Virus record (IMG/VR): IMGVR_UViG_3300045391_003787 | Coordinates: 1-40,131 of that record | Direction: 5' to 3' (one strand) | Source: a virus | Length of the DNA: 40,131 nucleotides | In this document: positions 1 to 36,600 of the stretch, piece by piece | Layout: each line of letters starts with the position of its first letter | Numbering within the stretch: position 1 is the stretch's first letter | Program-made: the position numbers and the translations under genes | Notes under the pieces: model-generated | Databases searched by the model: none | What the model saw: only the letters and a program-made list of their open reading frames with translations | Told to the model about the DNA's origin: nothing

Positions 1-69
1 ACTGTTGATGATGCGGGTGGTGGGGATATTAGCATTACAGCAGGAACAACTACTGCCACTAATGGTTAC
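1..69. repeat. Terminal direct repeat. Nt 1-69 are identical to nt 40063-40131, indicating closure of a circular or circularly permuted genome with a unique length of about 40,062 bp.
   Basis: Direct comparison of both window ends. Both read actgttgatgatgcgggtggtggggatattagcattacagcaggaacaactactgccactaatggttac. Confidence 0.95.
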
Positions 70-421: not shown

Positions 422-430
422 TGGTATAAT
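422..430 (+). promoter_or_regulatory. Extended -10 promoter element TGGTATAAT, one of four identical copies
   Basis: Exact TGnTATAAT match in an intergenic gap, 10 nt before the ATG at 440. No Shine-Dalgarno sequence lies between them. Confidence 0.5.
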
Positions 431-5015: not shown

Positions 5016-5222
5016 ATGGATAGACTGACACAGATAAGAAAGACGTTGGGATTTGCTAAGGATAAAGACTTGGCGATATTCAACGAGCTTACTAACATCA
5101 CTTCCAAACTTGAAGATCTAACTCAAAAAGAGTATACAGATATGTCTTCAACTAATGATCTTCTACAAGAGGTAGTCTCAGAACTTCAGAAACCCACCAC
5201 TGTTCATTTAATCTTAGACTAA
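5016..5222 (+). CDS. Small hypothetical protein
   Basis: 68-aa ORF packed between neighbours. Its stop overlaps the next start. Confidence 0.6.
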   Translation: MDRLTQIRKTLGFAKDKDLAIFNELTNITSKLEDLTQKEYTDMSSTNDLLQEVVSELQKPTTVHLILD

Positions 5223-5662
5223 TGAGAGACATTGAACTCCACATAAAAGCTGACGAGTTCCGAGCTAAGTTAGGCATTAAAGACGGTAAAGATGGTAAGG
5301 ACGGCAAGCAGGGCCCGCCAGGAGAGTCTATTCAGGGCAATAAAGGGGATACTGGTGAACCAGGACCAATCGGACCACAAGGGCCGGAGGGCAAAGAAGG
5401 ACCGGCTGGAAAAGATGGTTCCCCTGATACACCTTTCCAGGTCAGGGATAAACTAGAATCTCTACAAGAAGACGATCGCTTAGATGCTTCGGCTATCAGA
5501 AACCTACCAGAGATGACGCAAAACCCCGTGACTAAGAAGTATTTCTTTAGTGGCGGTGGTGGGAACAAATGGACAATTGGGGGATCTGGTCAAACCTTAA
5601 CTGTCAGCAACACCGCTCCTACCAATCCTGCGGTTGGGGACTTGTGGGTAGACATTACTTGA
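5222..5662 (+). CDS. Collagen-like (G-X-Y repeat) fibre protein
   Basis: The translation has 5 + 10 Gly-X-Y triplets (GKDGKDGKQGPPGES..GNKGDTGEPGPIGPQGPEGKEGPAGKDGSP), encoded at about 5285..5425. Confidence 0.75.
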   Translation: MRDIELHIKADEFRAKLGIKDGKDGKDGKQGPPGESIQGNKGDTGEPGPIGPQGPEGKEGPAGKDGSPDTPFQVRDKLESLQEDDRLDASAIRNLPEMTQNPVTKKYFFSGGGGNKWTIGGSGQTLTVSNTAPTNPAVGDLWVDIT

Positions 5663-5692: not shown

Positions 5693-6502
5693 ATGAAACT
5701 CTCGACAGTTATCCCGTCGTATAAAGATCCGAATCTTTTTAAGACTATCGAGGATATTTTAGAGAACAGCGAACTAGGGGATGAGCTAGAGGTCATAGCA
5801 GTTTTTGATGGATATTGGCCAACCGTTCCAGTAATCCAAGATTCTCACGTTAGATACGTCCATTTAGGTAAAAACCGAGGAATGAGAGGAGCAATTAACG
5901 CCGGGGTCGCTGTGGCCCGAGGCGAATTTTTTATGCGCCTGGACGAACACTGTTCTTTTGGTAAGGGATTTGATCGGATCTTAACTAGAGATTGCCAAGA
6001 GAATGAGGTTATGACGGCTCGTCGTTACTTTTTAGATGTCGACAAGTGGGAAGTGATGAAAGATAAGGGATTTGTTGACCATGAAAAGTTATCAATTCAA
6101 AATGTAACCGACACTGTTAAGAAGTTCTCGGGTCGACCCTGGAAAGAACGAGATGAGAAGCAAAAGGATGTGATGCTTTCCGAGACCCAGGCCATGCAAG
6201 GCTCAATGTGGATTGCGAATCGAGAGTTCTACTTAAAGACAGTTGGCGAAATGCAGACCGAAGGTTATGGACCTTTGATTCAGGACTCAGTAGAGGTTTG
6301 CATGAAATACTGGAAGGCTGGTGGACGGTTAATGCTCAATAAAAATACTTGGTTCGCTCACCGCCATCGTGATTTCGGGCGAACTCACAACAACGGCACC
6401 AAAGAGAATCCCGCTAAACAGGATCAGGGTTATAAATACGCACTAGACGTTTGGGGAGATTATTATACTAACGAACTTCTACCCCAATGGTCTAAGTGGT
6501 AG
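5693..6502 (+). CDS. GT-A fold glycosyltransferase with DxH motif (GT2/GT27-like, polypeptide GalNAc-transferase-like)
   Basis: N-terminal VIPSYKD...EVIAVFDG; metal-site motif RLDEHCSF (DEH at 5942..5950); C-terminal block VEVCMKYWKAGGRLMLNKNTWFAHRHR, colinear with the Gal/GalNAc-T motif. It is a paralog of 10619..11605. Confidence 0.7.
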   Translation: MKLSTVIPSYKDPNLFKTIEDILENSELGDELEVIAVFDGYWPTVPVIQDSHVRYVHLGKNRGMRGAINAGVAVARGEFFMRLDEHCSFGKGFDRILTRDCQENEVMTARRYFLDVDKWEVMKDKGFVDHEKLSIQNVTDTVKKFSGRPWKERDEKQKDVMLSETQAMQGSMWIANREFYLKTVGEMQTEGYGPLIQDSVEVCMKYWKAGGRLMLNKNTWFAHRHRDFGRTHNNGTKENPAKQDQGYKYALDVWGDYYTNELLPQWSKW

Positions 6503-6504
6503 CT

Positions 6505-7269
6505 ATGAAAAACCTCTTGGTATTTATAAATCCTCTAAAGACGTTCGAGGGAGCCGACTACTACAAAGAAATACATATCCTAGCGAAGCTGCAGATTGAT
6601 AATAGCCTAGCTTTTGGCTGGAAGCGTGAGGATATTATGATGGTGACTAACTTTCCTTACGAATATAATGGGGTACAAGCTATCGTGGTTCCTGACGAAA
6701 CTTTTGATGCAACCAAGAACACTGTTAGCAAGATCAATGGGATCTTAGCTTTGTTTGATATGGGGCTTATAACTGACGAACTATTTTGGTTCCATGACTT
6801 TGACGCTTTCCAGAACGCTCCTCTAGGAGAAGTAACACTAGGCGACAAGGTACTGGCTCTAACTAACACTACAGTTGATGATAGCCGTCTAAGCACCGGT
6901 GTTCTGTTTTTCTCACAAAGTGCTAGAGATTTATTTACCCAGTTGCAACAAAAGTGTCAGGAGAACTTAGTGAACGAAGAAGTTGGACTGAGACTTTTAC
7001 TCGCTGACCAACCACAACTGCAAGATCAGTTACTACTTTTAAACATCAGCCATAACTTTGCGATCAGAAAACGTCCGGTGGCCGACCAATATCAACAAGC
7101 CGAGAAACCAATAAAAGTTCTCCATTTCCATCCTACTGATAAACGTCTCTGTGATAGTGAACCCACCAAGAACAGTCTTGAGGTGGTATACGGACATAAT
7201 AGTCTAGGCGAATCTCTTTTGGGGGGTGAGTTAGAAGCAAGTTTTTGCAAATATGGTCTGACGGTATGA
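6505..7269 (+). CDS. Putative DxD nucleotide-sugar transferase, paralog family A, copy 1
   Basis: I place the start at ATG 6505 (MKNLL), 3 nt after the upstream stop. The ORF track opens at GTG 6496. Motifs are FWFHDFDAFQN (DxD) and KPIKVLHFHP. It is clearly paralogous to 7266..7997. Confidence 0.55.
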   Translation: MKNLLVFINPLKTFEGADYYKEIHILAKLQIDNSLAFGWKREDIMMVTNFPYEYNGVQAIVVPDETFDATKNTVSKINGILALFDMGLITDELFWFHDFDAFQNAPLGEVTLGDKVLALTNTTVDDSRLSTGVLFFSQSARDLFTQLQQKCQENLVNEEVGLRLLLADQPQLQDQLLLLNISHNFAIRKRPVADQYQQAEKPIKVLHFHPTDKRLCDSEPTKNSLEVVYGHNSLGESLLGGELEASFCKYGLTV

Positions 7270-7997
7270 AGAACCTTTTGTCCTTTACTAATCCTTCTGG
7301 AGAGTTTACCGACGAGGACAAAACACTCGTTAAGATTCATATTGATAACAGCTTAGATTTGGGTTGGAAAAAAGACGACATCTTACTGTTCACCAACTTC
7401 CCTTACGAGTACAACGGAGTTAAAGCTCTACCAGTTCCGGCCTTTGATATAAAGTGGGACAGAACTTCTAATAAAATTCCAGTCATCGAGTATCTACTCC
7501 TTGAGGGAATGTTCCCTGATCTTTACTGGTATCACGATTTTGATGCTTACCAGAATGAACCTTTCGATGAGGCAGAGTTAAGCGGCTTTGATCTTGGTCT
7601 GACCACTTATGGTTATAAGGATCAGATCAATGGTGGTTCATTCTTTTTTCGGGAGAACACTCATGACTTCTTTGATTATCTACTTAATCGTTTGATTCCT
7701 ACTTATCGCACTAGGGCCGATGAAAAGACTATGACTGATATGTGGCGTGAGGGTACTTTAAATAACTGGAACCACAAGATTTTAAACATCACCTATAATT
7801 TCGGTCAGCGTGGACCCAGTCGATGCTACAAACAAGCTGACAAGCCTCTAAAGGTTTTGCATTTCCACCCTTACTATCAGTTCTATCCCCATGACGACAC
7901 CAACATTAACGTCTTCATGCACGGACATAATCAGTGGGGTATTCCCATGATGTCGCAAAGATTAATTGACGTATTTAAGCATCATGGAGTCCAATGA
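7266..7997 (+). CDS. Putative DxD nucleotide-sugar transferase, paralog family A, copy 2
   Basis: MKNLL start at 7266 forms an ATGA overlap with the upstream stop (the track ORF opens at 7245). Motifs shared with copy 1: IDNSL.(F/L)GWK, TNFPYEYNGV, YWYHDFDAYQN, KPLKVLHFHP. Confidence 0.55.
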   Translation: MKNLLSFTNPSGEFTDEDKTLVKIHIDNSLDLGWKKDDILLFTNFPYEYNGVKALPVPAFDIKWDRTSNKIPVIEYLLLEGMFPDLYWYHDFDAYQNEPFDEAELSGFDLGLTTYGYKDQINGGSFFFRENTHDFFDYLLNRLIPTYRTRADEKTMTDMWREGTLNNWNHKILNITYNFGQRGPSRCYKQADKPLKVLHFHPYYQFYPHDDTNINVFMHGHNQWGIPMMSQRLIDVFKHHGVQ

Positions 7998-8664
7998 TCT
8001 AACACTCATAATGCTGACGGCCAACCGAGTACCGGCTGGCTGGGCTGAATTTCATAAAGAAAAACTCCTAGAAGCGGCCCAAGGTAAGCCAATTATTACT
8101 ATTTCCCGTGAGCCTTTAAATTGGGGTATAAACGTCCTTGATACCGAACGGCAGTCTATATCAAATATCTACTTCCAGCTTCTCAGAGGGGCAAAACTAG
8201 CCTCTACACGCTATATAGGAGTGGTTGAGGACGATTGCCTCTATCCAGCCGAGCATTTTGAGTTTAAACCGGCGGATGATGCCTTTTATTACAATGAGAA
8301 TCGCTTCAATGTCTTCACTTGGGGGCGGTCCATGTTTTGCTACAAGAAACGGGTGAGCAATTCTACCTTAATCGCTAATCGAGAATTAGTAATTAAAGCC
8401 TTAGAGGAAAGATTTGCTAAGTGGCCAGACGGAACGCCGACTGGAAACACGGGAGAATTAGGACGAGATAACATCGCTGATAAGTTAGGACTGCCTCATT
8501 ACCCGATGAGACTGTTTGAAACTTACTTTTCTGTAGTTCGAGTTGATCACCAATTAGGGGTAGATAGATTGTCCCGAACTCGTCGCAAAGGACCAGGAAT
8601 GTTAAAATCTTATGAGATCCCTATGTGGGGACGAGCTAAGGATATAGTTAATAAATTCAAATGA
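7984..8664 (+). CDS. Putative glycosyltransferase-like protein, paralog family B, copy 1
   Basis: Probable start at MESNDL (7984); the track ORF opens at 7966. It shares the pattern PII(T/S)(I/V)...P...G.N and acidic-x-D-x-LYP..(H/Y)F (VVEDDCLYPAEHF) with 8661..9332 and 9951..10622. Confidence 0.45.
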   Translation: MESNDLTLIMLTANRVPAGWAEFHKEKLLEAAQGKPIITISREPLNWGINVLDTERQSISNIYFQLLRGAKLASTRYIGVVEDDCLYPAEHFEFKPADDAFYYNENRFNVFTWGRSMFCYKKRVSNSTLIANRELVIKALEERFAKWPDGTPTGNTGELGRDNIADKLGLPHYPMRLFETYFSVVRVDHQLGVDRLSRTRRKGPGMLKSYEIPMWGRAKDIVNKFK

Positions 8665-9332
8665 CCGCCACAATTGTTTATTGCTCTAGTAATAGGGAAG
8701 ACGAAGCCTTCGAGCGAAGGATAAGAGAGTACTTGTTAAAAAACTGTGGGGGGCTACCAATTATTAGTGTCACCCAAAAGCCTACGGATCTTGGAACTAA
8801 TATTTGTGTAGGTGATGATATCGGGGTGTCAGGTTTTAATTTCTTTCGCCAGTGGCAGATTGGTTTAGAGGTCGCCAAAACGGATCTTGTGATTTCTGCC
8901 GAAGCCGATTGTCTTTACCCACCAGATTATTTCCAGTACCGCCCGCCTCGTTTAGACAAGTGCTATCGAAACTCCAACCTCTATGTGATGCCTGATTTGC
9001 GGAGTTTCTTTTTCAAGAAGTCAGAAGGAGCCACACACGCTCAAGTTATCGGACGAGAATTCTTTCTAAATAGATTAAACGAACTTTTCGTAGGAGCTCC
9101 CGAATGGTCGGCTGAGGAAAAGAACTTTCCTAAAGAGAGATGGAAGCAAGAAGATATTTTTTCTGAAGCCGAGATAGAGATGTATGAATCAGAGAACCCC
9201 GTCTTTCAGGTCAAAACCCATAAAGGGATGCGCTATTACACTCATTCAGATCGAACCCCTATCCCCGAGATAAAATATTGGGGCAATGGTACACCACTTC
9301 GTAATTATTTAATTAAAGGAATAGAAATATGA
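8661..9332 (+). CDS. Putative glycosyltransferase-like protein, paralog family B, copy 2
   Basis: ATGA overlap with the upstream gene. Motifs GLPIISVTQKPTDLGTNI and SAEADCLYPPDYF match copies 1 and 3. Confidence 0.45.
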   Translation: MTATIVYCSSNREDEAFERRIREYLLKNCGGLPIISVTQKPTDLGTNICVGDDIGVSGFNFFRQWQIGLEVAKTDLVISAEADCLYPPDYFQYRPPRLDKCYRNSNLYVMPDLRSFFFKKSEGATHAQVIGREFFLNRLNELFVGAPEWSAEEKNFPKERWKQEDIFSEAEIEMYESENPVFQVKTHKGMRYYTHSDRTPIPEIKYWGNGTPLRNYLIKGIEI

Positions 9333-9949
9333 CATTTAAAGAAGGACTAACACACTACGGCTTGCCTTACGAAATACCCGACTGTTCTCGGAATGGGCTG
9401 CCCCAATTCTTGGTAGACTCTGGTTATAAGGTCGGGGCCGAGGTTGGAGTTTATAAAGCCGAGTACTCCGAACGCTTCGCTAAAGTCGGTTTAAAACATT
9501 ATGCCATTGATCCTTGGATGGCTTTCCCGGGACAAGGACGGACCCAAAAGGTTCAGGAGAGACAAGAATTTTTATACGGTCATGCGCAGCGAGTCTTGGC
9601 TCCTTATCCCAACTGCACCATGATTCGTAAAACTTCGATGGATGCTTTAGCTGATTTTGCAGATAACAGTCTTGATTATGTGTACTTGGACGGCGATCAT
9701 TCCTTTCGCTTTGCAGCCGAGGATATAGTGGAATGGTCTAAGAAAGTCCGCCCGGGTGGAATCGTTGCCGGACATGATTATTGGAACACCGGACCCGATA
9801 AGTGGAACGTAGTTTGTCAGGTTAAAGCTGTTTTGGACGCATACATTAAGGTCTTTGAGATTAAGAGCTTTTACATCTATGGCAAGATGCACCCATTAGA
9901 CGAGCAGAAGAAAGACGATAAATTCCACAGTTGGTTATACATCAAATAA
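9329..9949 (+). CDS. Class I SAM-dependent methyltransferase (Methyltransf_24 / TylF-like O-methyltransferase)
   Basis: Motif I-like VGAEVGVYKAEYS and the characteristic YVYLDGDHSFRFAAEDIVEWSKKVRPGGIVAGHDY block. It is embedded in the glycosyltransferase cluster. Confidence 0.7.
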   Translation: MTFKEGLTHYGLPYEIPDCSRNGLPQFLVDSGYKVGAEVGVYKAEYSERFAKVGLKHYAIDPWMAFPGQGRTQKVQERQEFLYGHAQRVLAPYPNCTMIRKTSMDALADFADNSLDYVYLDGDHSFRFAAEDIVEWSKKVRPGGIVAGHDYWNTGPDKWNVVCQVKAVLDAYIKVFEIKSFYIYGKMHPLDEQKKDDKFHSWLYIK

Positions 9950-9950
9950 T

Positions 9951-10622
9951 ATGGATGGAATCCTGTATTACTCCGACAATACTTTTGAGGGGCCAATCTT
10001 CCAAGAGGTTCAAGACATCTTGAGTGGTACAGGATTACCGATCGTTAGCGTGACACTAAAGCCCCTGAAGTTTGGACAGAATATCGTGATGGATTTGCCT
10101 CGTTGTTATCCGACGATGGTTAAACAAATTATTGCTGGTTTGGAAAGTTTGCGAGTGCAGAATGTATTTTTTACTGAGCATGATGTTTTGTACAGCCCGT
10201 CTCATTTCTCGTTTGTTCCTCCTCGTCACGATATCTTTTATTACGATACTAATGTTTGGCGGTGGGATTATCCCAAAGAGAGGTACTTCACCTATGACCG
10301 CCTGCTTTGCTTGTCGATGATGTGTTGTGATAGAAAATTAGCTCTGGAGCATTACAAGAAGCGGTTGGAGATAATTCAAGATAATGGCTGGGATTTTCCT
10401 ACCAAAGGAGAACCAGCTTGGCAACGACGAATGGGCTATGAACCTGGTACTAAAAAGAAAAAGCGAGGGGGATTTACAGATGACGACTTTGAGACTTGGG
10501 CAGCCCCGCACCCTAGTATAGATGTTCGACACAAAGGGACTTTTTCTCCACCTAAAGTTAATTTACAAGATTTTAAATGGGAACCTACCGGCTGGCAGGA
10601 AACCACTATTAAACCTATATGA
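9951..10622 (+). CDS. Putative glycosyltransferase-like protein, paralog family B, copy 3
   Basis: Motifs GLPIVSVTLKPLKFGQNIV and FFTEHDVLYSPSHF align with copies 1 and 2. Confidence 0.45.
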   Translation: MDGILYYSDNTFEGPIFQEVQDILSGTGLPIVSVTLKPLKFGQNIVMDLPRCYPTMVKQIIAGLESLRVQNVFFTEHDVLYSPSHFSFVPPRHDIFYYDTNVWRWDYPKERYFTYDRLLCLSMMCCDRKLALEHYKKRLEIIQDNGWDFPTKGEPAWQRRMGYEPGTKKKKRGGFTDDDFETWAAPHPSIDVRHKGTFSPPKVNLQDFKWEPTGWQETTIKPI

Positions 10623-11605
10623 GAGATATATCAATCGTTATTCCGGCCAGGAACGAGGAGTTCTTAGCCAGAACTATTCAAGACATCTTAGAACACATTG
10701 AAGCCGATACCGAGATCATCGCTGTGTTAGATGGTCAATGGGCAGCCCCACCTATTGTTCAGCATGAACGAGTTAATGTTATCTATGTTCCAGAAGCTGT
10801 CGGACAAAGGGCCGCTGGGAATATTGGAGCTCGATTGGCGCAAGGAAAGTATATCTGGAAGTCTGACGCTCATTGTTCTTTTGATCAAGGGTTTGACCGT
10901 AAGATGTTAGAGTTCTTTAAAGAGGTGGGTGACGACGTAACAGCCGTGCCGATAATGAAGAACCTCCATGTCTTTGATTGGAAATGTTATTCCTGCGGTC
11001 ATAAAGAATATCAAGACAAGTATCCTCAAGCGGAAGACAATGCTTGTAAAAGTTGTGGGGCAAAGAACGTCAAAAAGAAGATGATTTGGCAACCCAAAAA
11101 AGGTACTCATGCTAGAGCTTACTGCTTTGATGCCTCTCCTAAATTTGGCTACTTCGAGCCATGGGAACACACTCCTGAGTACAAGAAAGACTTAGCAGAG
11201 AAAGGGTATACCGAATCCATGAGTTTACAGGGTAGTTGCTTTGTCTTAACTAAAGAAAAGTACTTCTCTCTACCAATTTGTGATGAAACGCTAGGTAATT
11301 GGGGAAACCAGGGAATCGAAGTTGCCTGTAAAACCTGGCTGTCTGGTGGACGTGTCTTAGTAAACCATAAGACCTGGTACGCTCATTGTTTTAGAACTAA
11401 ATCTGAGTTTGGTTTTCCCTGGCCGGTGTCCGGACGGGATCAAGAGAAAACCAAGAAGAACGTCAGGGATCTTTTGTGGGAAGGAAAGTTCGATAAAGCT
11501 GTCCGTCCAGTGAGTTGGTTGGTAGAAAAGTTCTGGCCAGTGCCAGGTTGGACCGAAGCAGACCTAAAACAGCTCAAAGAACACGAAGCAAATCTTCGTA
11601 AATAG
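10619..11605 (+). CDS. GT-A fold glycosyltransferase with DxH motif (GT2/GT27-like, polypeptide GalNAc-transferase-like) carrying an inserted Cys4 zinc ribbon
   Basis: SIVIPARNEE...EIIAVLDG; KSDAHCSF (DAH at 10865..10873); GNWGNQGIEVACKTWLSGGRVLVNHKTWYAHCFR, resembling WGGENxExSFRxWxCGG...GHxFR; inserted CYSC..(18 aa)..CKSC at 10985..11056. Confidence 0.7.
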   Translation: MRDISIVIPARNEEFLARTIQDILEHIEADTEIIAVLDGQWAAPPIVQHERVNVIYVPEAVGQRAAGNIGARLAQGKYIWKSDAHCSFDQGFDRKMLEFFKEVGDDVTAVPIMKNLHVFDWKCYSCGHKEYQDKYPQAEDNACKSCGAKNVKKKMIWQPKKGTHARAYCFDASPKFGYFEPWEHTPEYKKDLAEKGYTESMSLQGSCFVLTKEKYFSLPICDETLGNWGNQGIEVACKTWLSGGRVLVNHKTWYAHCFRTKSEFGFPWPVSGRDQEKTKKNVRDLLWEGKFDKAVRPVSWLVEKFWPVPGWTEADLKQLKEHEANLRK

Positions 11606-11624: not shown

Positions 11625-11633
11625 TGGTATAAT
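11625..11633 (+). promoter_or_regulatory. Extended -10 promoter element TGGTATAAT
   Basis: Exact copy of the motif in the 59-nt gap upstream of the 957-aa repeat protein gene. Confidence 0.45.
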
Positions 11634-11664: not shown

Positions 11665-14538
11665 ATGGCTAGAATACACCAATCAGGAGCTGAACATAAC
11701 TCAGTTGTTGATGGAATTGACGACATAATTAGTGCTGGTGCAACCATTGTCACGACCCCTGTCTTGGGTAGTCGTTATGCTTGGAAATTAACTAGTGCGT
11801 CAGGAGCTTCATCAGTAGCATCTTACGCTCGTTTCGGTCACGCCAATTCAACCGGAGCAGCGGTTTATTATAAATGGGATTTTCAAGTAGATACTACTGG
11901 AGCGTTCTGGTTGTGTCAGTTTGCTTTTGGAACAACAAAGCGTGGTGGAATTAGATTTACAGGGGGAAAGTTACAATTAGCAACAGATATTACAACGGGC
12001 GTTGGGGCAACTTCGGTATCTGTTACCACTGGAGTTTGGCACACCTGTCAGGCTAAGTATGATGCGGCAACGGGAAATGCAGAATTTTATTTAGATGGGG
12101 TTCTGGTTGATACCGGACAAAACGTAACCACCGCCGGAAATAATGTAGACAATCTTTATATTGGTCAGTTTCAGCCAGTCAATAGCAATATGTACGTTGA
12201 TAATATTATTGTCAACGATACTACTGGTGCTAATGAGACTGGGTATCCGGCAAGGGGTGAGAGATTTGTAATTCTCTACCCCAATGCCGTAATGACCGAA
12301 GCGGCTACCGTGGGTGGTGCGCCTGGAGATGTTTATTTTAGAACCTCGGCAGGTGGTGCAGGGTCCGGTACAACATCTAACTGGAATCAAGTTGAGGAAA
12401 CCGATCCTGATGGTGATACTTCTTACGTTAGGAAAAACGCTAGTGAATCTAACCGTGATTGGTATCCGGTAGAAGATATTGCCACAGTTGGGTTTCCAGC
12501 AACGACAGATGAGGTGAATGTTGTAGCGGTTGGTGGTTATGTTGGAGGGAACGGAACCACCGATAGGTTCTTTAGGTATTTATACGAAACAGCAGCCGGA
12601 GCAACCGGGCTTCAGCGGTCCGCCAGCGTCAACGCCAACGTCAACGCTTATTTCCTATATAAAATTGGCGGTGTTGCTGGTGCTGACCAACAGTTACTTT
12701 CTTATCCTTCGGGTTCCGTTGGATCAGACCTAGATACCTATCAAATTGGTTGGGAAGCTAACGACGCTAACGCCCGTCAAATAAAGGGCTCAGCTTTTTG
12801 GCTGGAAGTTTCTTATATCGCTTCGGGTGTTTCTACTTCCCCTTCAGTCTCACCATCAATCTCTAAATCACCGTCCGTCTCTCCGTCCGTATCCGTCTCC
12901 CCCTCGGTTTCGGTCAGCCCTAGTATTTCTAAATCCCCTTCGGTTTCGCCGTCGGTATCACCATCGGTATCAGTCTCTCCAAGTATCTCCGTCTCTCCAA
13001 GTGTTTCAAAATCACCGTCAATTTCACCTTCCGTAAGTCCGAGTGTCTCCGTGTCCCCCAGCGTAAGTGTTAGTCCCTCGGTTTCTAAATCCCCTTCCAT
13101 CAGTCCGAGCGTTAGCCCCTCGGTATCAGTCTCCCCCTCAGTATCAGTTAGCCCAAGCTCTAGTTTATCTCCCAGCGAATCTCCTTCCGTTTCGCCCTCG
13201 GTTTCCACCTCCCCGTCCGTTAGTGTCTCACCTAGTGGTTCTCTATCACCTAGTATCTCACCAAGCGTTAGTCCCTCAGCTTCGACAAGTCCTTCGATTA
13301 GCGTCTCGCCGTCGTCGTCTTTATCTCCCTCGATCAGTCCTTCCATCTCACCTAGTTCGTCAGAAAGTCCCTCCATCAGTCCAAGTTCTTCGATCAGCCC
13401 GTCGGTGTCCCCATCGGTATCGGTGTCTCCATCAATCAGTGTTTCACCCTCGGTTTCTGTATCTCCCAGTTCTTCTCTATCACCCTCCCTTTCTCCGAGC
13501 GTTAGCCCCTCCGTCAGTGTTTCTCCTTCTGTTTCAACCTCTCCTTCGGTTTCTACTTCCCCATCTGTTTCTGTTTCACCTTCAAGTTCAATATCGCCTA
13601 GCGTATCGCCATCTAGTAGTGCGTCTCCATCTGTTAGCCCTTCGGTTAGTACCTCGCCTAGCGTTTCCACAAGTCCTTCGATTAGTGTTAGCCCTAGCAG
13701 TTCTGAGTCACCCAGTGTCTCACCGTCTTCATCTTTATCACCGTCTGTCTCTCCGAGTGTTTCTACCAGCCCTTCAATCTCTGTATCCCCAAGTTCGTCA
13801 GAGTCTCCTTCCGTTTCGCCTTCCAGTAGTGTCTCTCCTTCCGTAAGTCCAAGCGTAAGTACTTCACCTTCCGTCTCAGTTTCTCCTAGTGTTTCAACCT
13901 CGCCTAGTAGTTCATTAAGCCCCAGCATTAGCCCCTCTGTAAGTCCCAGCTCTAGTGAATCACCATCAGTCAGTCCCTCCTCATCAACTTCGCCCAGTGT
14001 CAGCCCCAGTGTCTCCACTTCCCCATCAGTTAGTACTTCCCCATCAGTAAGTGTCTCACCGTCGTCTTCTATTAGTCCCAGTGTCAGCCCGTCGGTTTCC
14101 ACTTCACCCTCACTTAGCCCTAGTGTCAGCACTAGTCCCTCAGTCTCGGTGTCGCCGAGTAGTTCACTTAGTCCATCTACGTCGCCATCGGTCTCAGTAA
14201 GTCCATCAACATCGCCGAGCGTTTCCGTTTCACCCAGCGTCAGCGAATCCCCCTCCATCAGTCCATCTATTAGTGCTAGTCCCAGTACCTCCCCCTCGGT
14301 ATCAGTATCACCTTCGGAATCCCCAAGTCTCAGTCCCTCAGTCTCTCCGAGTATCTCTTTTAGTCCTTCAATATCCCCATCGCCCTCTGCTCCAGCCTTT
14401 ACAGCTACTTTATATGAATGGAACGGCACTATTTGGATAAAGAAAGTTATGAAGTATTACAATGGGTCAGTTTGGATTAATAAGCCCCTTTACTATTGGG
14501 ACGGGTCAGCGTGGGTTGCTGTAGATAATTTAGGCTAA
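11665..14538 (+). CDS. Large virion surface or fibre protein: N-terminal LamG/concanavalin-like domain, (Ser-X)n tract of about 520 aa, and short aromatic C-terminal repeats
   Basis: 957-aa ORF. The N-terminal roughly 385 aa has a LamG-like pattern (WHTCQAKYD..GNAEFYLDGVLV...NLYIGQF...MYVDNIIVND). Residues about 389-908 have Ser at every second position. The C-terminus has three Y-x-(W/Y)-(N/D)-G-(S/T)-x-W units. Confidence 0.8.
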   Translation: MARIHQSGAEHNSVVDGIDDIISAGATIVTTPVLGSRYAWKLTSASGASSVASYARFGHANSTGAAVYYKWDFQVDTTGAFWLCQFAFGTTKRGGIRFTGGKLQLATDITTGVGATSVSVTTGVWHTCQAKYDAATGNAEFYLDGVLVDTGQNVTTAGNNVDNLYIGQFQPVNSNMYVDNIIVNDTTGANETGYPARGERFVILYPNAVMTEAATVGGAPGDVYFRTSAGGAGSGTTSNWNQVEETDPDGDTSYVRKNASESNRDWYPVEDIATVGFPATTDEVNVVAVGGYVGGNGTTDRFFRYLYETAAGATGLQRSASVNANVNAYFLYKIGGVAGADQQLLSYPSGSVGSDLDTYQIGWEANDANARQIKGSAFWLEVSYIASGVSTSPSVSPSISKSPSVSPSVSVSPSVSVSPSISKSPSVSPSVSPSVSVSPSISVSPSVSKSPSISPSVSPSVSVSPSVSVSPSVSKSPSISPSVSPSVSVSPSVSVSPSSSLSPSESPSVSPSVSTSPSVSVSPSGSLSPSISPSVSPSASTSPSISVSPSSSLSPSISPSISPSSSESPSISPSSSISPSVSPSVSVSPSISVSPSVSVSPSSSLSPSLSPSVSPSVSVSPSVSTSPSVSTSPSVSVSPSSSISPSVSPSSSASPSVSPSVSTSPSVSTSPSISVSPSSSESPSVSPSSSLSPSVSPSVSTSPSISVSPSSSESPSVSPSSSVSPSVSPSVSTSPSVSVSPSVSTSPSSSLSPSISPSVSPSSSESPSVSPSSSTSPSVSPSVSTSPSVSTSPSVSVSPSSSISPSVSPSVSTSPSLSPSVSTSPSVSVSPSSSLSPSTSPSVSVSPSTSPSVSVSPSVSESPSISPSISASPSTSPSVSVSPSESPSLSPSVSPSISFSPSISPSPSAPAFTATLYEWNGTIWIKKVMKYYNGSVWINKPLYYWDGSAWVAVDNLG
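12831..14388 (+). repeat. Coding tract for strictly alternating Ser-X repeats (SPSVSPSVSVSPS...)
   Basis: Read directly from the translation. The DNA copies are degenerate, with all six Ser codons and all four Pro codons used within the first 100 nt. Confidence 0.95.
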
Positions 14539-14541
14539 AGA

Positions 14542-14550
14542 TGGTATAAT
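14542..14550 (+). promoter_or_regulatory. Extended -10 promoter element TGGTATAAT ahead of the lysis cassette
   Basis: Exact copy of the motif, 4 nt after the stop of the 957-aa gene. Confidence 0.45.
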
Positions 14551-25418: not shown

Positions 25419-25427
25419 TGGTATAAT
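25419..25427 (+). promoter_or_regulatory. Extended -10 promoter element TGGTATAAT
   Basis: Exact copy of the motif. The ATG at 25434 begins 7 nt after the -10, which would fit a leaderless transcript. Confidence 0.45.
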
Positions 25428-27262: not shown

Positions 27263-29110
27263 ATGACCTACGAGCAAGATTCAGTGTGTGAGTTAGTCCG
27301 GAAAGCGGAGCAGAACTATATTACCGGCACGACGACCATTGGGAAGTATGTGGAGTTCTCCCAGTACGAGAACATTGAAAAGATTGACGCTTACCTTAAC
27401 TCCAAGCACATTTCTGGCGACACCGACTCAATGGGCCGAGAAAAGCCCTTTTTTAACATAGTAACGAGTGCGGTAAATATCTGGTTTAGGGCGACCGACA
27501 TTGATCGCAAAGATATTAGAATAAAACCAACTAAGAAGTCTGACGTTGTACCAGCCTTTTTGGCTTCAATTCACCTACAGGAATGGATGAAACGAGAGGG
27601 CTTTGGCACCTTTTTAAATGACTGGGGACGCACACTGGCTCGTTATGGCTCAGCGGTTATTAAGTTTGTAGAATCAGGTGGGGAACTGCATTGTTCAGTC
27701 ATCCCCTGGAACCGCATGATCTCTGACACTATTGATTTTGAGAACAACCTAAAGATTGAGAAGCTCTACTACACACCAGCGCAGCTAAGAAAGAACAAGA
27801 ATTATGACCAGGAGGTGGTCGAGGCTTTGATTGAATCTCGATCCAAGAGACAAACACAAGGCAAACAGCACAAAGACAATATTAGTGAGTACATTGAGAT
27901 CTACGAGGTACACGGGGAACTACCGCTGTCTTATCTGACTGACAACGAGGAGGACGATGACGTGTACCAGCAGCAGATGCACATCATTTCCTTTAGTGGT
28001 AAGAAATACGGCTCTCGTTACTCCAAAGGATCATCGGATGACTATACGCTCTACAAAGGACGAGAGGCCAAAGATCCTTACATGATTACGCACTTAATTA
28101 AAGAGGACGGTCGAGCGCAGGCTATTGGAGCGGTTGAACACTTATTCGAAGCTCAGTGGATGCAAAACCACACCGCCAAACAGATCAAGGACCAATTAGA
28201 CTTGGCTTCTAAATTAGTATTCCAGACATCTGACGGCAATTACGCTGGTCGGAATGTCCTAACCTCTATCGAGAATGGCGATATACTTGTTTACAACACT
28301 AATGAACCTCTTACCCAGTTGGCGAACACTTCGCACGACATCACGTCGCTCCAAAACTTCGCCCAACAATGGAAGCAATTAGGTAACGAGATCAATGGAA
28401 TAAGTGAGTCATTGATGGGTGAGAACCCACCTTCGGGGACGGCGTGGCGACAGACTCAGGCTTTACTCCAAGAGTCACACTCGTTGTTTGAAATCATGAC
28501 TGAGAACAAAGGCTTGCACCTTGAGGATATGCTTCGTAAGTACATTATTCCTTACTTGAAGAAGCAACTTGATACGACAGACGAGATTGTAACGACCCTA
28601 GATGAGCAGGGAATCGCTCAGTTTGACGCAATGTATGTGCCGAGTGAGGTTATTAAGCAGTCCAATGAAATTATTAAGCAGCAGATTTTATCAGGCCAGA
28701 TCGCCTCACAACCTGATGCTCAACAGCTAGAGGCCGGAATTAAAGGCACGCTTGCTCAAGACGGCAACCAAAGGTTTATTAAGCCGTCTGATATACCAAC
28801 TAAAACTTGGAAGGATATATTCAAGGATATAGAATGGGAAGTAGAATGCGAAATAACACCAGAGAACAGCAACAAGGAAGCTGTACTAACAACTTTATCA
28901 ACGGTCTTACAGACTGTGGCAACGAATCCTTTAGTTTTACAGGACCCGAACATGAGATTAGTATTCAACCAGATTCTAACCGAGACCGGCAACATTTCTC
29001 CCCTACAATTGGCTCAAGTAGCCGCTCAACCACAGCCACAGACCCAGCCGCAACCACAAGCTCAACAGCCACAGCAGGTATTACAACCGCTAACTCAATC
29101 TAATAAATAA
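27263..29110 (+). CDS. Portal protein
   Basis: 615-aa ORF directly after terL, with size and position typical of a portal. It has a Q/P-rich C-terminal tail (QPQPQTQPQPQAQQPQQ). Confidence 0.65.
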   Translation: MTYEQDSVCELVRKAEQNYITGTTTIGKYVEFSQYENIEKIDAYLNSKHISGDTDSMGREKPFFNIVTSAVNIWFRATDIDRKDIRIKPTKKSDVVPAFLASIHLQEWMKREGFGTFLNDWGRTLARYGSAVIKFVESGGELHCSVIPWNRMISDTIDFENNLKIEKLYYTPAQLRKNKNYDQEVVEALIESRSKRQTQGKQHKDNISEYIEIYEVHGELPLSYLTDNEEDDDVYQQQMHIISFSGKKYGSRYSKGSSDDYTLYKGREAKDPYMITHLIKEDGRAQAIGAVEHLFEAQWMQNHTAKQIKDQLDLASKLVFQTSDGNYAGRNVLTSIENGDILVYNTNEPLTQLANTSHDITSLQNFAQQWKQLGNEINGISESLMGENPPSGTAWRQTQALLQESHSLFEIMTENKGLHLEDMLRKYIIPYLKKQLDTTDEIVTTLDEQGIAQFDAMYVPSEVIKQSNEIIKQQILSGQIASQPDAQQLEAGIKGTLAQDGNQRFIKPSDIPTKTWKDIFKDIEWEVECEITPENSNKEAVLTTLSTVLQTVATNPLVLQDPNMRLVFNQILTETGNISPLQLAQVAAQPQPQTQPQPQAQQPQQVLQPLTQSNK

Positions 29111-30829: not shown

Positions 30830-31639
30830 GTGGCCCTGCGTACCGCTCTTGTAGCGGAGAAGATCTGTGAAGTAGACCGCTCGGATGCTAAAACTATCCA
30901 GGCTCCTTACTTAACAGCTCCTTCGACCGTAGTTCAGGCCTTGGCGGGTACTTACACCCCTAACGCCGTAACTACCACCGACGACACATTAACAGTTTCC
31001 GACGAAGTAGTGGTCGCCACCCACGTCTTTGGCTTTGAGGATATAATCTCGAAGTTTGACTTGTTTGCGGCCTTTACTGAGGAACAGAACTTTGCGGTGG
31101 CCAAAGCTATCGATAAGTACGTTCTAAACGTAATCTTAGAAGCGGGTACTGGTTCCTACACCACGCCTGCTGGTGGTTTCACAACCGCCGCTAACATCAA
31201 CGTAATCATGTCTAACCTTATCGCTAAGGTGGCTGGTTACTCAGACTCTTACAAGGGTCTATTCCTCGTCATTGAAAACACTGACGTTCCTGGATTCATC
31301 CAGGCTCAGGCGACCAATGGTTTCTCCTTCGCTGACGCTGCGCTAAACAACGGTTGGATGACTTCCTACATGGGAGTCGACATCTACGTTGTCCGGGCTG
31401 CCACCTTCGAAGATGACACCACGACCAGTGATTCTGGATCGCAGACTTGGACCAACCTTGGCCACCGTTTGTTCGGTGTTAAGGGTGTCGCCACTTATGC
31501 TGCACCTCGAGGTCTTCAATTCGAGGAAAAAGGTGTTACTGGAAAGACAGGTAAGGAAATTGTCACTTACGGCTTGATTGGTGCCAAAGTTTGGACCCCA
31601 AAGTCTGATTTGATTGTCGATATTACTTTGACTTCCTAG
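30830..31639 (+). CDS. Major capsid protein (start uncertain; the reading frame is open from 30752)
   Basis: The gene follows the scaffold, and its size and composition fit a capsid subunit. GTG 30830 is the first canonical start, but it lacks an SD and 26 in-frame sense codons precede it. Confidence 0.6.
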   Translation: MALRTALVAEKICEVDRSDAKTIQAPYLTAPSTVVQALAGTYTPNAVTTTDDTLTVSDEVVVATHVFGFEDIISKFDLFAAFTEEQNFAVAKAIDKYVLNVILEAGTGSYTTPAGGFTTAANINVIMSNLIAKVAGYSDSYKGLFLVIENTDVPGFIQAQATNGFSFADAALNNGWMTSYMGVDIYVVRAATFEDDTTTSDSGSQTWTNLGHRLFGVKGVATYAAPRGLQFEEKGVTGKTGKEIVTYGLIGAKVWTPKSDLIVDITLTS

Positions 31640-32106: not shown

Positions 32107-32844
32107 ATGGCACTCTCAAGTGGAACTAACCCGGTATTAGACGGAGTGAGGGTGACTGCAAATGGAATCACAGCTACTAACGTCGAATCCGGTCTAAACC
32201 AAATCTATCCTCAAGTACAATCGGTTAATATTAGTGGAATCACTAACGCTGAGTCAGACTTTGTTGTCCTGCCTTTGCTTAGTGACGTACCGGTAGGTCA
32301 TCACATCATCATCAACAATCAATCTGGCTATAACATTTATTTGCGAACGCCAGCTTCAAGTAATAACAAGATTAATGATGTCGACTGTGACGGTGCTAAC
32401 CAGTACCCCCTAACTAAAACGAATGTCTTAGAGTTAATCAAAAGAGATGGTACGGGTGGTTGGGTTGCTTTAGAGCACACCAACTTGGGTGCGGTGGTAA
32501 CAGCGGTGGTTCCGGCGGCTCATTCCTTGAGTCCGTCGGCTTCACCGTCGGCTTCACCATCTGTCTCACCTTCCGTGTCAGCGTCGCCTTCTAGGAGTCC
32601 AAGTATCTCACCATCAGTGTCACCGTCAGCGTCTTTGTCGCCAAGCGTGTCACCATCAGTCTCGGTCTCTCCGTCGGTTTCGCTATCACCAAGTAAATCG
32701 CCGTCCGTCTCACCAAGTGCGTCAACTTCACCAAGTTCTTCGGCTTCTCCGTCCGTGTCACCGTCGGTGTCAAAATCACCTTCTCTGTCACCTTCAATTT
32801 CGCCGTCGATCTCGCCAAGTTTCTCGCCCTCACAAAATCCGTAA
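32107..32844 (+). CDS. Putative capsid decoration or head-surface protein, paralog 2, with a 105-aa C-terminal (Ser-X)n tail
   Basis: The first 140 aa are paralogous to 31673..32095. The C-terminus reads SLSPSASPSASPSVSPSVSASPS...SPSFSPSQNP. Confidence 0.6.
   Translation: MALSSGTNPVLDGVRVTANGITATNVESGLNQIYPQVQSVNISGITNAESDFVVLPLLSDVPVGHHIIINNQSGYNIYLRTPASSNNKINDVDCDGANQYPLTKTNVLELIKRDGTGGWVALEHTNLGAVVTAVVPAAHSLSPSASPSASPSVSPSVSASPSRSPSISPSVSPSASLSPSVSPSVSVSPSVSLSPSKSPSVSPSASTSPSSSASPSVSPSVSKSPSLSPSISPSISPSFSPSQNP
32527..32841 (+). repeat. Coding tract for alternating Ser-X repeats
   Basis: Read from the translation of 32107..32844. Confidence 0.9.
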
Positions 32845-33636: not shown

Positions 33637-36600
33637 ATGCGAATGGCCAAGAAGAACATTGGCCCATTCCTCGCTTTCAACAGGGTTTGGTTCGTAATCA
33701 ACCAAAAGCGATTACTCTGGTTACTTAACTCCAAGTTAACCCGGCGATGGTTCCGCCGGGTACTTTGCATTGATGAAACTTTAGACATTGAGGAGATCTT
33801 CCCCAATTCTTATAAGGTTCATTTGATTGGAAACGTCTATAAGCAAGATTTCAGAACTCACGCAAAATATGGGAAGCGTATTTATCTTGCCTTTAAACCT
33901 TTATGGTGGGTAATTCACTACTGGGATGAACTTTTTGCTGATAGATATGCTCCTGAATGGAGTTATGGATTTACTACTTTAACAGTATTTCCTGACCCCA
34001 ACGCAGAGACTACCTCTGTCGATGGTTCTACGACAAGAAGTACTGCCGAGGCATGGGCTACCAAACGAGCAGCGGCCGCATCTAACACCGCCCAAGATAG
34101 TGCTACTACTGCTTACTTTGCACGCCTCACTTCCAATGGAACCCCTCAGTGGACAAACATGGATAGGGGATTCTTTTTGTTTGATACTTCTGCATTAGGT
34201 GCAACAGCCATTGTCGCTAGTGCAACATTTTCTATTTCCGGCGATAGTGGTGGTACTACCTTAGATCAATATAGTCAGGATTATTGTTTAGTTAGTTCTT
34301 CTCCGGCATCTAATACAGTTATTTCTACTGGGGATTACGACCAAGTGGGATCAACAGATTTTATAACCCGCGTTTCTTGTGGGTCTTGGAATGATACGGC
34401 GTATAATGATCACGCTTTAAATTCAAGTGGTATCGCAGCGATTTCGTTGACGGGTGTAACTAAGTTTGGAACTCGTCTTTCTGGAGATTTAGATAATGTA
34501 GAACCTAGTATTGGCGCTGGTGGGTTGAACTCTCGTGTAAGGTGTATTTTTGCAGACAACGCAGGAACAGCTAGTGATCCTAAGTTGGTAATTACTTATA
34601 CGTTGTCGTCTACCTCTCCTTCCGTCTCACCGTCTGTTAGCGTAAGTCCGTCTGTTTCCGTATCCCCATCCGTTTCAGTTTCTCCTAGCTCGTCTCTATC
34701 GCCCTCGGTTTCTCCGAGTGTGTCACCCAGTGTCTCAGTCTCCCCCTCGATAAGTGTGTCACCCAGTGTCAGTACCAGTCCATCAATTTCCGTTTCACCT
34801 AGCAGTTCTTTATCGCCGTCTGTTTCCCCTAGTAGCTCGGCTAGCCCGTCGGTGTCGCCTTCCGTTAGTGTATCGCCTAGCGTATCAAAGTCACCATCCA
34901 TATCACCCTCCATTTCCCCATCAGTGTCAGTAAGTCCATCAATTTCCGTTAGCCCCTCGGTATCAGTTTCACCTAGTATCTCTGTTTCACCTTCAGTTTC
35001 CGTTTCACCATCTAGTAGTCTATCTCCCTCCATCAGCCCGTCTGTTTCCCCAAGTGCAAGTGTATCTCCATCTGTCTCGGTATCCCCGTCAAGTTCTTTA
35101 TCACCATCTATCTCACCATCGGTATCACCCAGCGTTTCAGTATCACCTTCTGCTTCTGTTAGTCCTAGTAGCTCTTTAAGTCCCTCAATCAGTCCAAGTA
35201 TCTCACCATCAGTAAGTGTTAGCCCGTCTGTTTCCGTTTCACCATCTTCATCACTCTCACCATCTGTAAGCCCCTCGGTATCCCCTTCCGTCAGTGTTTC
35301 ACCGAGTGTCAGTGTTTCACCTTCTTCCTCTCTATCGCCATCCATCAGTCCGTCTGTCTCTCCTTCGGTATCTACTAGCCCATCAATTTCCGTTAGCCCC
35401 TCATCTTCTTTATCTCCATCAATATCACCTAGCGTTAGTCCGAGCGTTTCTGTGTCTCCGAGTGTTAGTGTTAGTCCATCCTCGAGTTTATCGCCAAGTG
35501 TTTCACCATCGGTCTCTCCCTCAGTATCAACTTCTCCAAGTGTTAGCGTCTCACCGTCGTCTTCACTTTCTCCATCAATAAGTCCGTCGGTGTCACCGTC
35601 GGTATCGGTCAGTCCATCAGTCTCAGTTAGCCCCTCTTCAAGTTTATCACCGAGCATATCGCCCTCCATCAGTCCATCCGTTTCGGTATCTCCATCGACC
35701 TCGGTGAGTCCATCTGTAAGTGTATCTCCATCGGTTTCTACTTCTCCATCAGTCTCAGTCTCCCCCAGCGTTTCCGTATCACCATCCTCTTCATTATCTC
35801 CCTCGATCTCACCGTCGGTTTCCCCGAGTGCTAGTACATCACCTAGTGCTTCTGTTTCTCCTTCTGAAAGTGTCTCTCCCAGCTCCTCGCTTAGTCCGAG
35901 TATTTCGCCCTCTGTATCACCCTCGGTTAGTACCTCACCTTCTGTTTCAGTCTCACCTTCTGTTAGTGTATCGCCAAGTTCTAGTTTGTCCCCTAGCATT
36001 TCTCCTAGTGTAAGCCCTTCTGTTTCTACAAGCCCAAGCGTCTCCGTCAGCCCTTCGGTAAGCACTTCCCCCTCCTCATCATTATCACCGTCCATAAGTC
36101 CATCAGTATCGCCCTCAGTTTCAATCAGCCCATCGGTATCACCCTCTGTCTCCGCTAGTCCGTCAGTAAGTCCTTCATCGTCACTCTCACCTTCCATTTC
36201 GCCATCAGTAAGCCCCAGTGTTAGTGTTTCACCTAGTGCTTCAGTATCTCCCAGCGTCTCAACTTCGCCTTCCGTTAGTACCTCACCATCCGTGTCGACT
36301 AGTCCTTCCGTTTCACCTTCCGTTAGTGTTTCTCCGTCAGTTTCACCGTCAGTCAGTAAATCTCCCAGTATTAGTCCATCAGTGTCTCCTTCGGTGTCGG
36401 TATCACCTAGTGTTTCCGTCTCTCCCTCTGTTAGCGTCAGTCCATCCGTTAGTCCGTCGGCCTCTCGGAGTCCCTCAGCTTCGCCTTCTTTCTCACCATC
36501 CAAGAGTCCAAGTATCTCCCCGTCCTTCTCGCCCTCTAGGAGTCCGTCGGTCTCCGTTTCTCCATCCGTCTCTACTAGTCCGACACCCTCATCTTCGGTT

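Follow-up and report, generated by a model that had tools for sequence, protein, structure and literature searches.

The serine-rich repeat proteins (SRRPs) of Gram-positive bacteria, such as Fap1, GspB, SraP and PsrP, combine alternating Ser-X tracts with a folded binding domain and are glycosylated in the cytoplasm, prior to export, by dedicated glycosyltransferases encoded in the same locus. Mucin-type O-glycosylation in animals is carried out in the Golgi lumen by membrane-anchored polypeptide GalNAc-transferases (family GT27) that possess a ricin-type lectin domain, and its acceptors are long Ser/Pro-rich repeats of mixed Thr/Ser/Pro composition. Among phages, the glycosylation of capsid and tail-tube proteins by the phages' own glycosyltransferases has been shown experimentally for the mycobacteriophages Che8, Corndog and Myrna, as recounted in PMC12363180 (citing Freeman et al., 2023). 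Surveys of Patescibacteria phages have reported 'concanavalin A-like lectin/glucanase' genes and nucleotide-sugar genes, which were read as auxiliary genes acting on the host surface (PMC12911398). Here we describe a gene that shares features with each of these systems, located at positions 11665-14538 (plus strand) of a 40,131-nucleotide stretch of viral DNA (IMG/VR record IMGVR_UViG_3300045391_003787, positions 1 to 40,131; this whole stretch is referred to as the window, and coordinates are those of the window unless another locus is named). The gene encodes a protein of 957 aa with a two-domain lectin-like head, a (Ser-X)n stalk and an aromatic tip, and it lies beside a gene for a homologue of the polypeptide GalNAc-transferases. 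A conserved pairing of this enzyme with Ser-X genes is present both in viruses and in genomes of the candidate phyla radiation (CPR). Judged from the sequences, the protein is probably a modular, cytoplasmically O-glycosylated, mucin-like virion fibre protein of a tailed phage.

The likeness to SRRPs lies in the alternating Ser-X tract, the folded domain with a predicted binding function, the glycosyltransferases of the same locus and, as proposed here, glycosylation in the cytoplasm before assembly. In place of the SRR1-BR-SRR2 arrangement and LPXTG of SRRPs, however, the target protein has a single tract, its folded domain is N-terminal and belongs to a phage family, and Pro and Val are abundant at the x positions. 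Since the enzyme encoded beside the gene is a homologue of the mucin-type GalNAc-transferases, the proline-, threonine- and serine-rich (PTS) domains of mucins offer a closer analogy. As in the animal system, the enzyme is homologous to GalNAc-transferase catalytic domains, with the DxH motif and a third His in alignment, and the putative acceptor is a long Ser/Pro-rich repeat that would be expected to form an extended bottle-brush stalk. The phage enzyme differs from its animal counterparts in lacking a ricin-type lectin domain, a membrane anchor and a Golgi lumen, and in having a Zn-ribbon insert and a predicted cytoplasmic location; the tract is strictly Ser-X, unlike the mixed composition of mucins, and the system occurs in phages and CPR bacteria. 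As in the mycobacteriophages, the phage glycosyltransferase genes adjoin structural genes, the cassette (5693-11605) being part of the late operon, but the putative substrates are stalk proteins dedicated to this role that would offer hundreds of serines as acceptors, and the searches run show no relationship between the enzymes (no PHROG match). The head of the target protein belongs to PHROG 14065, a family to which no function is assigned, and genes of this kind are on record as lectin/glucanase genes from phages assigned to Patescibacteria; in the published account they are treated as auxiliary metabolic genes with no report of a Ser-X stalk, of a GalNAc-transferase-like enzyme or of their linkage (PMC12911398). 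A search of the published literature likewise found no description of the Ser-X tracts, the enzyme or their linkage, and together these apparently constitute an enzyme-substrate system that is widespread among CPR bacteria and their phages and has so far gone undescribed.

The target open reading frame (ORF) begins with an ATG and is complete. An initial annotation of the window had described a tract of about 520 residues, from about residue 389 to 908, in which every second residue is Ser, and this description is close to exact: the longest strictly alternating run is aa 390-908 (12832-14388; 519 aa), with Ser in 260/260 alternate positions and a total of 306 Ser in the whole protein. The x positions are occupied by P (100), V (78), I (21), T (18), S (16), L (10), E (7), K (4), A (3), G (1) and F (1); all of the residues listed in that annotation are present, the single F having been omitted. 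The tract parses into 98 units, 60 of the form SPSxSx and 38 of the form SPSx. At the DNA level there is little sign of this regularity. Tandem Repeats Finder detected three short arrays only in the tract DNA, recurring 15-mers account for only 1.8% of it, and the Ser codons (AGY 92, TCN 184) comprise all six types, mixed and interleaved with 118 class switches. The interleaving of codon classes and near absence of DNA-level repetition point to long-standing selection at the protein level for Ser at every second position. Slippage, mis-assembly or an assembly artefact as the source of the tract was ruled out by the codon diversity, by the presence of three separate tracts in the genome and by the many independent metagenome contigs that carry homologous tracts. 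Fully stretched, at 0.25-0.34 nm per residue, the 519 residues would span ~130-175 nm. The tract is followed by the C-terminal tip (aa 909-957; 14389-14535), in which the three aromatic units noticed earlier ([YW]-x-[ND]-G-[ST]-x-W-[IV]) were found at aa 912-957. The same annotation had proposed a concanavalin/LamG-like N-terminal domain, which is borne out by structure prediction (AlphaFold2 and Foldseek, with no Pfam sequence match), although the two-domain make-up of the 389-residue region had been overlooked. The target has no signal peptide or transmembrane (TM)-like segment (N-terminus MARIHQSGAEHN; highest 19-residue hydropathy 1.11), LPXTG is absent (C-terminal end ...AWVAVDNLG), and the full protein matches no Pfam family at E <= 0.01.

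The association between Ser-X tracts and glycosyltransferases in viruses was examined in two ways. In a head-anchored test, 32 IMG/VR loci encoding the head family were compared, of which eight were Ser-X-positive, with tracts of up to 658 residues in the head-family homologue, and 24 were Ser-X-negative. Homologues of the window glycosyltransferases were encoded in six of the eight positive loci, immediately before the Ser-X gene and on its strand, and the remaining two had different family 2 glycosyltransferase (GT2) and nucleotide-sugar cassettes in the same position. No such homologues were found in any of the 24 negative loci, the methyltransferase alone being matched weakly in four. When a family-wide hidden Markov model (HMM) was used, GT2 was detected in 8/8 positive versus 4/24 negative loci (Fisher p = 4.7e-5; deduplicated, 2.8e-4), and one of the four GT2-bearing 'negatives' (L011) carries a poly-Ser/Thr stalk. 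In the second test, loci were chosen by the enzyme only: among 304 viral contigs encoding a relative of the glycosyltransferase at 10619-11605, the best 80 (49-65% identity) were inspected, and 72 of these contained one or more Ser-X ORFs, always on the strand of the enzyme. The median gap from the enzyme to a downstream Ser-X ORF was 88 nt, and a Ser-X ORF was present within 5 kb in 32 of the 37 loci having at least 5 kb of downstream sequence; the eight negative loci mostly have little sequence downstream of the enzyme. Among the 113 viral Ser-X ORFs recovered, the longest tract has 1506 residues, the heads are diverse (just five belong to the LamG-like family) and a handful of small tips recur; many of the ORFs terminate in the tract itself. 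That the pairing holds over different heads, tips, contig sizes and degrees of enzyme divergence argues for a functional link.

The enzyme on which this test was based is a 328-aa GT-A glycosyltransferase (10619-11605, plus strand) identified by matches to Pfam Glycos_transf_2 and, weakly, to Zn_ribbon, and it contains a CxxC...CxxC insert. When its profile was compared with all PDB sequences, the top 15 matches were polypeptide GalNAc-transferases (GalNAc-T1, 2, 4, 7, 9, 10 and 12) with E-values ranging from 1.9e-11 (GalNAc-T2) to 3e-5, whereas generic GT2 structures match only the N-terminal half of the protein. At the DxH motif, DAHC of the phage enzyme aligns with DSHC of GalNAc-T2, and D83-A84-H85-C86 and H256 are invariant in the alignment of the enzyme family. 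In the region of the Gal/GalNAc-T motif SWGQQG.EVACKTWLSGGR...YAHMFR aligns with VWGGENLEISFRVWQCGGS...VGHVFR (by pattern, WG..G.E...WLSGG...YAHMFR with WGGENLE..WQCGG..VGHVFR) and the third metal-binding His is kept. Neither a ricin-type lectin domain nor a membrane anchor was detected in it by Pfam and a TM check. The protein is a homologue of the polypeptide GalNAc-transferases, GT27-like in its catalytic motifs and not in its domain architecture, with a predicted activity of the same kind, and it is proposed here as the initiating O-glycosyltransferase for the Ser-X tracts. Animal GalNAc-transferases prefer Pro close to the acceptor, and Pro makes up 38% of the x positions in the target tract and 37% over the 113 viral Ser-X ORFs.

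This gene is the last of an eight-gene plus-strand cassette. The others encode a GT2 (5693-6502), a protein without an assigned family (6496-7269), a weakly nucleotide-diphospho-sugar-transferase-like protein (7245-7997), three paralogous modules of 223-232 aa (7966-8664, 8661-9332 and 9951-10622) and an S-adenosylmethionine (SAM) methyltransferase (9329-9949). A homologue of the second module (8661-9332) was picked up by the GT2 HMM, and PHROGs contains no family for any of the cassette glycosyltransferases. No TM-like segment or signal peptide was found in any of the eight proteins, and the cassette annotation includes no flippase, polymerase, priming transferase or lipid-carrier gene. Soluble enzymes without a flippase, polymerase or priming transferase fit cytoplasmic protein glycosylation better than they fit envelope glycan synthesis. 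In the window the genes for the 223-aa module and for the enzyme overlap but are distinct (9951-10622 and 10619-11605); in four other loci the two are fused into a protein of 515-556 aa in the opposite order, enzyme first (L009 8442-10001, L012 8296-9966, L025 7447-8994 and L036 5814-7463). In two further Ser-X phages (L018, 345-9526; L019, 3742-9008) the region just upstream of the Ser-X gene encodes GT2 together with nucleotide-sugar enzymes, namely UDP-glucose dehydrogenase, GDP-mannose 4,6-dehydratase, epimerases and asparagine-synthase-like amidotransferases. The additional nucleotide-sugar enzymes of some Ser-X phages suggest that glycan composition varies among phages.

Relatives of the enzyme are also encoded by cellular genomes. 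A search of 185,579 species-representative genomes returned 124, of which the best 80 (51-63% identity to the phage enzyme) were inspected. Most of those with informative titles are CPR/Patescibacteria metagenome-assembled genomes (MAGs), including Woese-, Levy-, Davies-, Roizman-, Zambryski- and Saccharibacteria, WWE3 and others, and closed chromosomes of 0.74-0.94 Mb are among the carriers. A Ser-X ORF lies downstream on the same strand in 52 of the 80 loci, with tracts of up to 2024 residues. On the closed chromosomes the loci have housekeeping genes at their flanks and no phage hallmarks, which indicates that they are cellular, and a prophage origin was rejected on the grounds that housekeeping genes are present on both sides. 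The cellular Ser-X proteins that were examined have no signal peptide or TM segment and carry small tips at their ends. By comparison of these genes, the system carried by the phage is probably a version of one that is native to the lineage of its probable host, and the host itself is probably a CPR/Patescibacteria bacterium. Many of the enzyme-bearing MAGs (L119-L198) are titled 'uncultured Gammaproteobacteria', among them a closed 938-kb chromosome (OZ246401.1); these titles are probably placeholders, the size and gene content being CPR-like. In three CPR loci (L140 11125-18243, L144 12433-16228 and L152 13099-17739) a run of glycosyltransferase genes is followed by genes for giant Ser-X proteins of up to 2372 aa. 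TatC is encoded directly downstream in L140 and L144, and an ORF of the same size follows in L152.

The pairing of enzyme and tract could in principle be incidental to another function. The tract might be an unmodified disordered spacer and the cassette an auxiliary module that remodels the host envelope, acting on O-antigen-like or other surface glycans. Phages commonly carry GT2 enzymes for envelope modification, and nucleotide-sugar synthesis genes are present in some of the related loci. The published reading of concanavalin A (ConA)-like and nucleotide-sugar genes in Patescibacteria phages as host-surface auxiliary metabolic genes points the same way (PMC12911398). We nevertheless regard this explanation as rather unlikely. 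The pairing of glycosyltransferase and Ser-X gene is near-universal and tight, across different N-domains and tips and in both viruses and cells; the enzyme at 10619-11605 resembles polypeptide and not lipid-linked glycosyltransferases; the cassette consists of soluble enzymes without flippase, polymerase or priming transferase and is situated in the late structural operon; and a mere spacer hardly explains the strict periodicity of Ser.

Evidence for a place of the protein on the virion comes in part from the head (aa 1-389), which was modelled by AlphaFold2 from a 71-sequence alignment (pLDDT 93.3, pTM 0.92). The model comprises a ConA/LamG-type beta-sandwich (aa ~1-205; 11665-12279) and a second, also confidently modelled, beta-rich domain (aa ~206-389; 12280-12831) that ends in the motif FWLEVSYI. 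In Foldseek comparisons the PDB matches of the head are lectin or carbohydrate-binding ConA-like domains only, with E-values down to 6e-8; examples are 2w68 (TMt 0.59), legume lectins (0.51), a trans-sialidase lectin domain and BoNT Hc-N, the TMt values to stand-alone lectin domains being 0.5-0.59. As modelled, the N-terminal head domain has a ConA/LamG-type lectin fold, for which carbohydrate binding is a prediction only. For the second domain Foldseek found no solved structural counterpart with this high-confidence model, nor was there a two-domain match in the PDB. By sequence, the head gave no match in the PDB, none in 50,697 GenBank phages (tblastn) and no Pfam family at E <= 0.01, LamG/Laminin_G included. 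In BFVD the head was matched over its full length by proteins from cultured phages that are either uncharacterised or annotated as 'virion structural' (Sphingomonas phage Kharn, E 2e-15), and the PHROG 14065 profile matches aa 99-387 (E 5.3e-19). A profile search with the head family retrieved 4673 representative clusters, of which 751 have E <= 1e-30, and across the family the N-terminus is near-invariant (M1, A2, R3, G8 and E10). About half of the best 150 clusters consist of the domain alone; the remainder have C-terminal extensions of 100 to >1000 residues or are embedded in giant proteins. The extensions are highly variable and mostly repetitive, with Ser-X tracts in P0046, P0116, P0070 and P0138. 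The closest homologues (27-75% identity) are 391-402 aa in length and represent the head alone, stopping 10-17 residues past FWLEVSYI, and such head-only homologues sit in structural modules downstream of capsid genes. The head is thus a modular phage domain that is conserved and has the fold of a lectin. In six loci (L001-L006) the heads are 68-75% identical to that of the target although the phages share no other detectable protein with the window genome, which points to recent module exchange between unrelated phages.

The same Ser-X tract occurs in three proteins of this complete genome, and the other two are encoded between capsid and tail genes. One, of 245 aa (32107-32844, plus strand), is encoded two genes past that of the major capsid protein and consists of an N-domain of 138 aa followed by a tract of 104 aa that continues to the C-terminal end. 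The second (33637-37032, plus strand; 1131 aa) has an unrelated N-domain of ~322 aa, a tract of ~684 aa and a tip in which a 'SSWTNQDKN'-type repeat occurs about 12 times. The heads of these two proteins belong to no PHROGs family.

These observations bear on a second alternative, in which the target protein is glycosylated but is not part of the virion, being instead a phage copy of a host Ser-X glycoprotein that is released or displayed during infection and alters the adhesion of an episymbiotic host. CPR chromosomes do carry homologous glycosyltransferases and giant Ser-X loci between housekeeping genes, the identity between phage and CPR enzymes is 51-63%, and the target gene has a promoter-like element of its own and is located where the late operon ends, next to the lysis genes. 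Release or display is, however, difficult to reconcile with the lack of a signal peptide or TM segment in the target, the head family lies within structural modules of other phages and has a BFVD match to a virion structural protein, and the other two Ser-X proteins are encoded among capsid and tail genes. We consider this alternative unlikely and favour incorporation of the Ser-X proteins into the particle.

An exact 69-bp direct repeat at the two ends of the window (1-69 and 40063-40131) indicates that it represents a complete circular assembly of 40,062 bp, with a G+C content of 43%. A plus-strand late operon starts with terminase (26037), portal (27263-29110), the major capsid protein (30830-31639) and other structural genes and continues over the junction with genes for three large proteins that have no annotation and for a collagen-like fibre (5222-5662). 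After these come the eight-gene glycosylation cassette and the target gene and, last, genes for a holin-like protein and an M23 peptidase. The initial annotation had inferred a phage late operon, which agrees with terminase, portal and capsid genes on the same strand and lysis genes directly after the target, and it had placed the gene directly downstream of a glycosylation cassette, the start of the gene being in fact 59 nt past the end of the last glycosyltransferase gene (11605). Within this gap, 31 nt upstream of the target ATG, is an extended -10-like element, TGGTATAAT (11625-11633). Four exact copies occur in the window (422-430, 11625-11633, 14542-14550 and 25419-25427), all on the plus strand, intergenic and upstream of plus-strand genes; 0.45 copies would be expected by chance, and four were reached in 0/100 shuffles. 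The element is probably the late promoter motif of the phage, and since copies bracket the target gene this gene probably has its own promoter.

The late position also bears on a third explanation, that the cassette hypermodifies phage DNA by glycosylating hydroxymethyl-pyrimidines and that its adjacency to Ser-X genes is coincidental. Phage glycosyltransferases often act on DNA (10.1101/2023.12.21.572611; PMC13326640) and the genome does encode a DNA methyltransferase. That enzyme, however, is an MT-A70 adenine methylase, one of the annotated early genes with NinG, YopX and a phosphoesterase, among which there is no dCMP/dUMP hydroxymethylase, TET/JBP or thymidylate-synthase-like gene. The failure to find a route to hydroxymethyl-pyrimidines weakens the case for DNA glycosylation, and the situation of the cassette in the late operon, the presence of the same glycosyltransferase beside Ser-X proteins in cellular genomes and the fact that the PDB relatives of the enzyme are protein O-glycosyltransferases make it very improbable. 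That the target is a phage-borne member of the Gram-positive SRRPs (Fap1, GspB, SraP), a logic that the initial annotation had invoked from the alternating Ser dipeptides and glycosyltransferase-rich locus, has almost no likelihood, because defining features of that family are absent (no signal peptide, no LPXTG, a single tract, no SecA2/SecY2/Asp or other accessory Sec-like proteins in scans of most larger ORFs of the 40-kb genome, and GT-A, GT27-related enzymes in place of the GT4 GtfA/GtfB) and 38% Pro at the x positions is unlike SRRP S[AVTE] repeats; membership is thereby ruled out, and what stands of the earlier claim is the link of tract to cassette, supported by comparative genomics, and a functional analogy.

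A mechanism can be proposed for the favoured explanation, a mucin-like virion fibre glycosylated by the phage itself. The GalNAc-transferase-like enzyme encoded 59 nt upstream would initiate by placing the first sugar on serines in the cytoplasm late in infection, and the other GT-A enzymes and the methyltransferase would extend and cap the glycan, all three Ser-X proteins being substrates of this soluble cassette. The modified tract would form a stiff, hydrated, protease-resistant bottle-brush of >100 nm carrying the small aromatic tip, and the conserved two-domain head would be the folded part, most likely that which holds the protein on the virion. Attachment by the head is favoured because many Ser-X proteins, including that of 245 aa, end in the tract itself. 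Together the three proteins could form a glycan coat or long-reach adhesive fibres on the particle, resembling the Ser-X glycoproteins encoded beside homologous enzymes in the host lineage. Surface glycans could be the ligands of the lectin head and aromatic tip, and it is equally possible that the coat shields the particle or mimics the host glycoproteins.

Several points weigh against this proposal. The glycosylation of the tract, the sugar concerned, incorporation into the virion, the end that is attached and a role in ligand binding or shielding are all inferred. The similarity to GalNAc-transferases is at the level of motif and profile (E ~1e-11) and, with no ricin domain, the acceptor could differ. 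Foldseek matched no phage structural protein in the PDB to the head, which bears on the place of the protein in the virion, and the exact target protein is absent from the other public assemblies searched. The co-occurrence counts are not phylogenetically independent, and gene order shared by descent among related elements means that the p-values are optimistic. The assignment of the host rests on homology of the glycosyltransferase to CPR MAGs, many with uninformative titles, and the auxiliary, host-surface reading of the ConA-like lectin and nucleotide-sugar genes in Patescibacteria phage surveys runs counter to a structural one (PMC12911398).

A broader reading, which is offered tentatively as a possibility of somewhat less than even weight, is that CPR/Patescibacteria have a prokaryotic counterpart of mucin-type O-glycosylation in common with their phages, one made up of a soluble GalNAc-transferase-like initiator and (Ser-X)n stalk proteins of hundreds to >2000 residues, and that the phage dresses its virion in host-like mucin fibres for adhesion to, or camouflage among, the surfaces of an ultra-small host and of the cell with which that host is partnered. 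If true, this would be the first counterpart of mucin-type O-glycosylation outside eukaryotes, and would provide bacterial and viral relatives of the animal initiating enzymes with their natural substrates adjacent, making origin and specificity testable in vitro. If the tract is glycosylated, the glycosylation of particles by the phages themselves, so far a matter of a few mycobacteriophages, would gain a second example of a very different kind, and one extending to at least 72 of the 80 loci inspected out of 304 environmental viral contigs with the enzyme. The 'ConA-like' and sugar 'auxiliary metabolic genes' of CPR phages would then be parts of a structural glycoprotein system, and for annotation the glycosyltransferase and ConA-like genes of these phages should not be taken as auxiliary metabolic genes by default. 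Almost no CPR bacteria are in culture and little is known of the biology of their surfaces; the giant Ser-X glycoproteins are candidate surface or adhesion structures, and the phage copies hint at what phages recognise or imitate.

A number of minor features were also recorded. The aromatic tip of the target scores below the Pfam DUF2510 gathering threshold (19.7 bits against a cut-off of 24), with only eight residues (YWDGSAWV) aligning, and no Pfam family was found for the recurrent tips. The same type of aromatic tip ends family members that have different stalks (P0086, L048 and L064), and the repeat tip of the 1131-aa protein also recurs (P0113, L048 and L064). The collagen-like (Gly-X-Y) protein directly before the cassette (146 aa, plus strand) resembles phage tail-fibre families, and a Gly/Ser/Thr-rich ORF of ~300 aa runs across the circular junction. 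An antisense ORF opposite the target tract (12813-14429, minus strand; 538 aa) was rejected as a gene: the periodic codon composition of the tract leaves the antisense frame free of stops, and the ORF is a by-product of this. The same artefact is assumed to explain an antisense ORF of 671 aa (34596-36611, minus strand) opposite the other long Ser-X tract. Finally, a recurrent C-terminal domain of ~135 aa ('...EWEGQT...LQIYN...W(E/D)T(V/L)DSDN...DTDF.LT...LTNYKD...ISCRVYQ'), which has no Pfam match, closes many family members both with and without Ser-X tracts (L044, L046, L049, L072, L080, L081, L089, L100, L113 and L018; P0046, P0070, P0077 and P0090).

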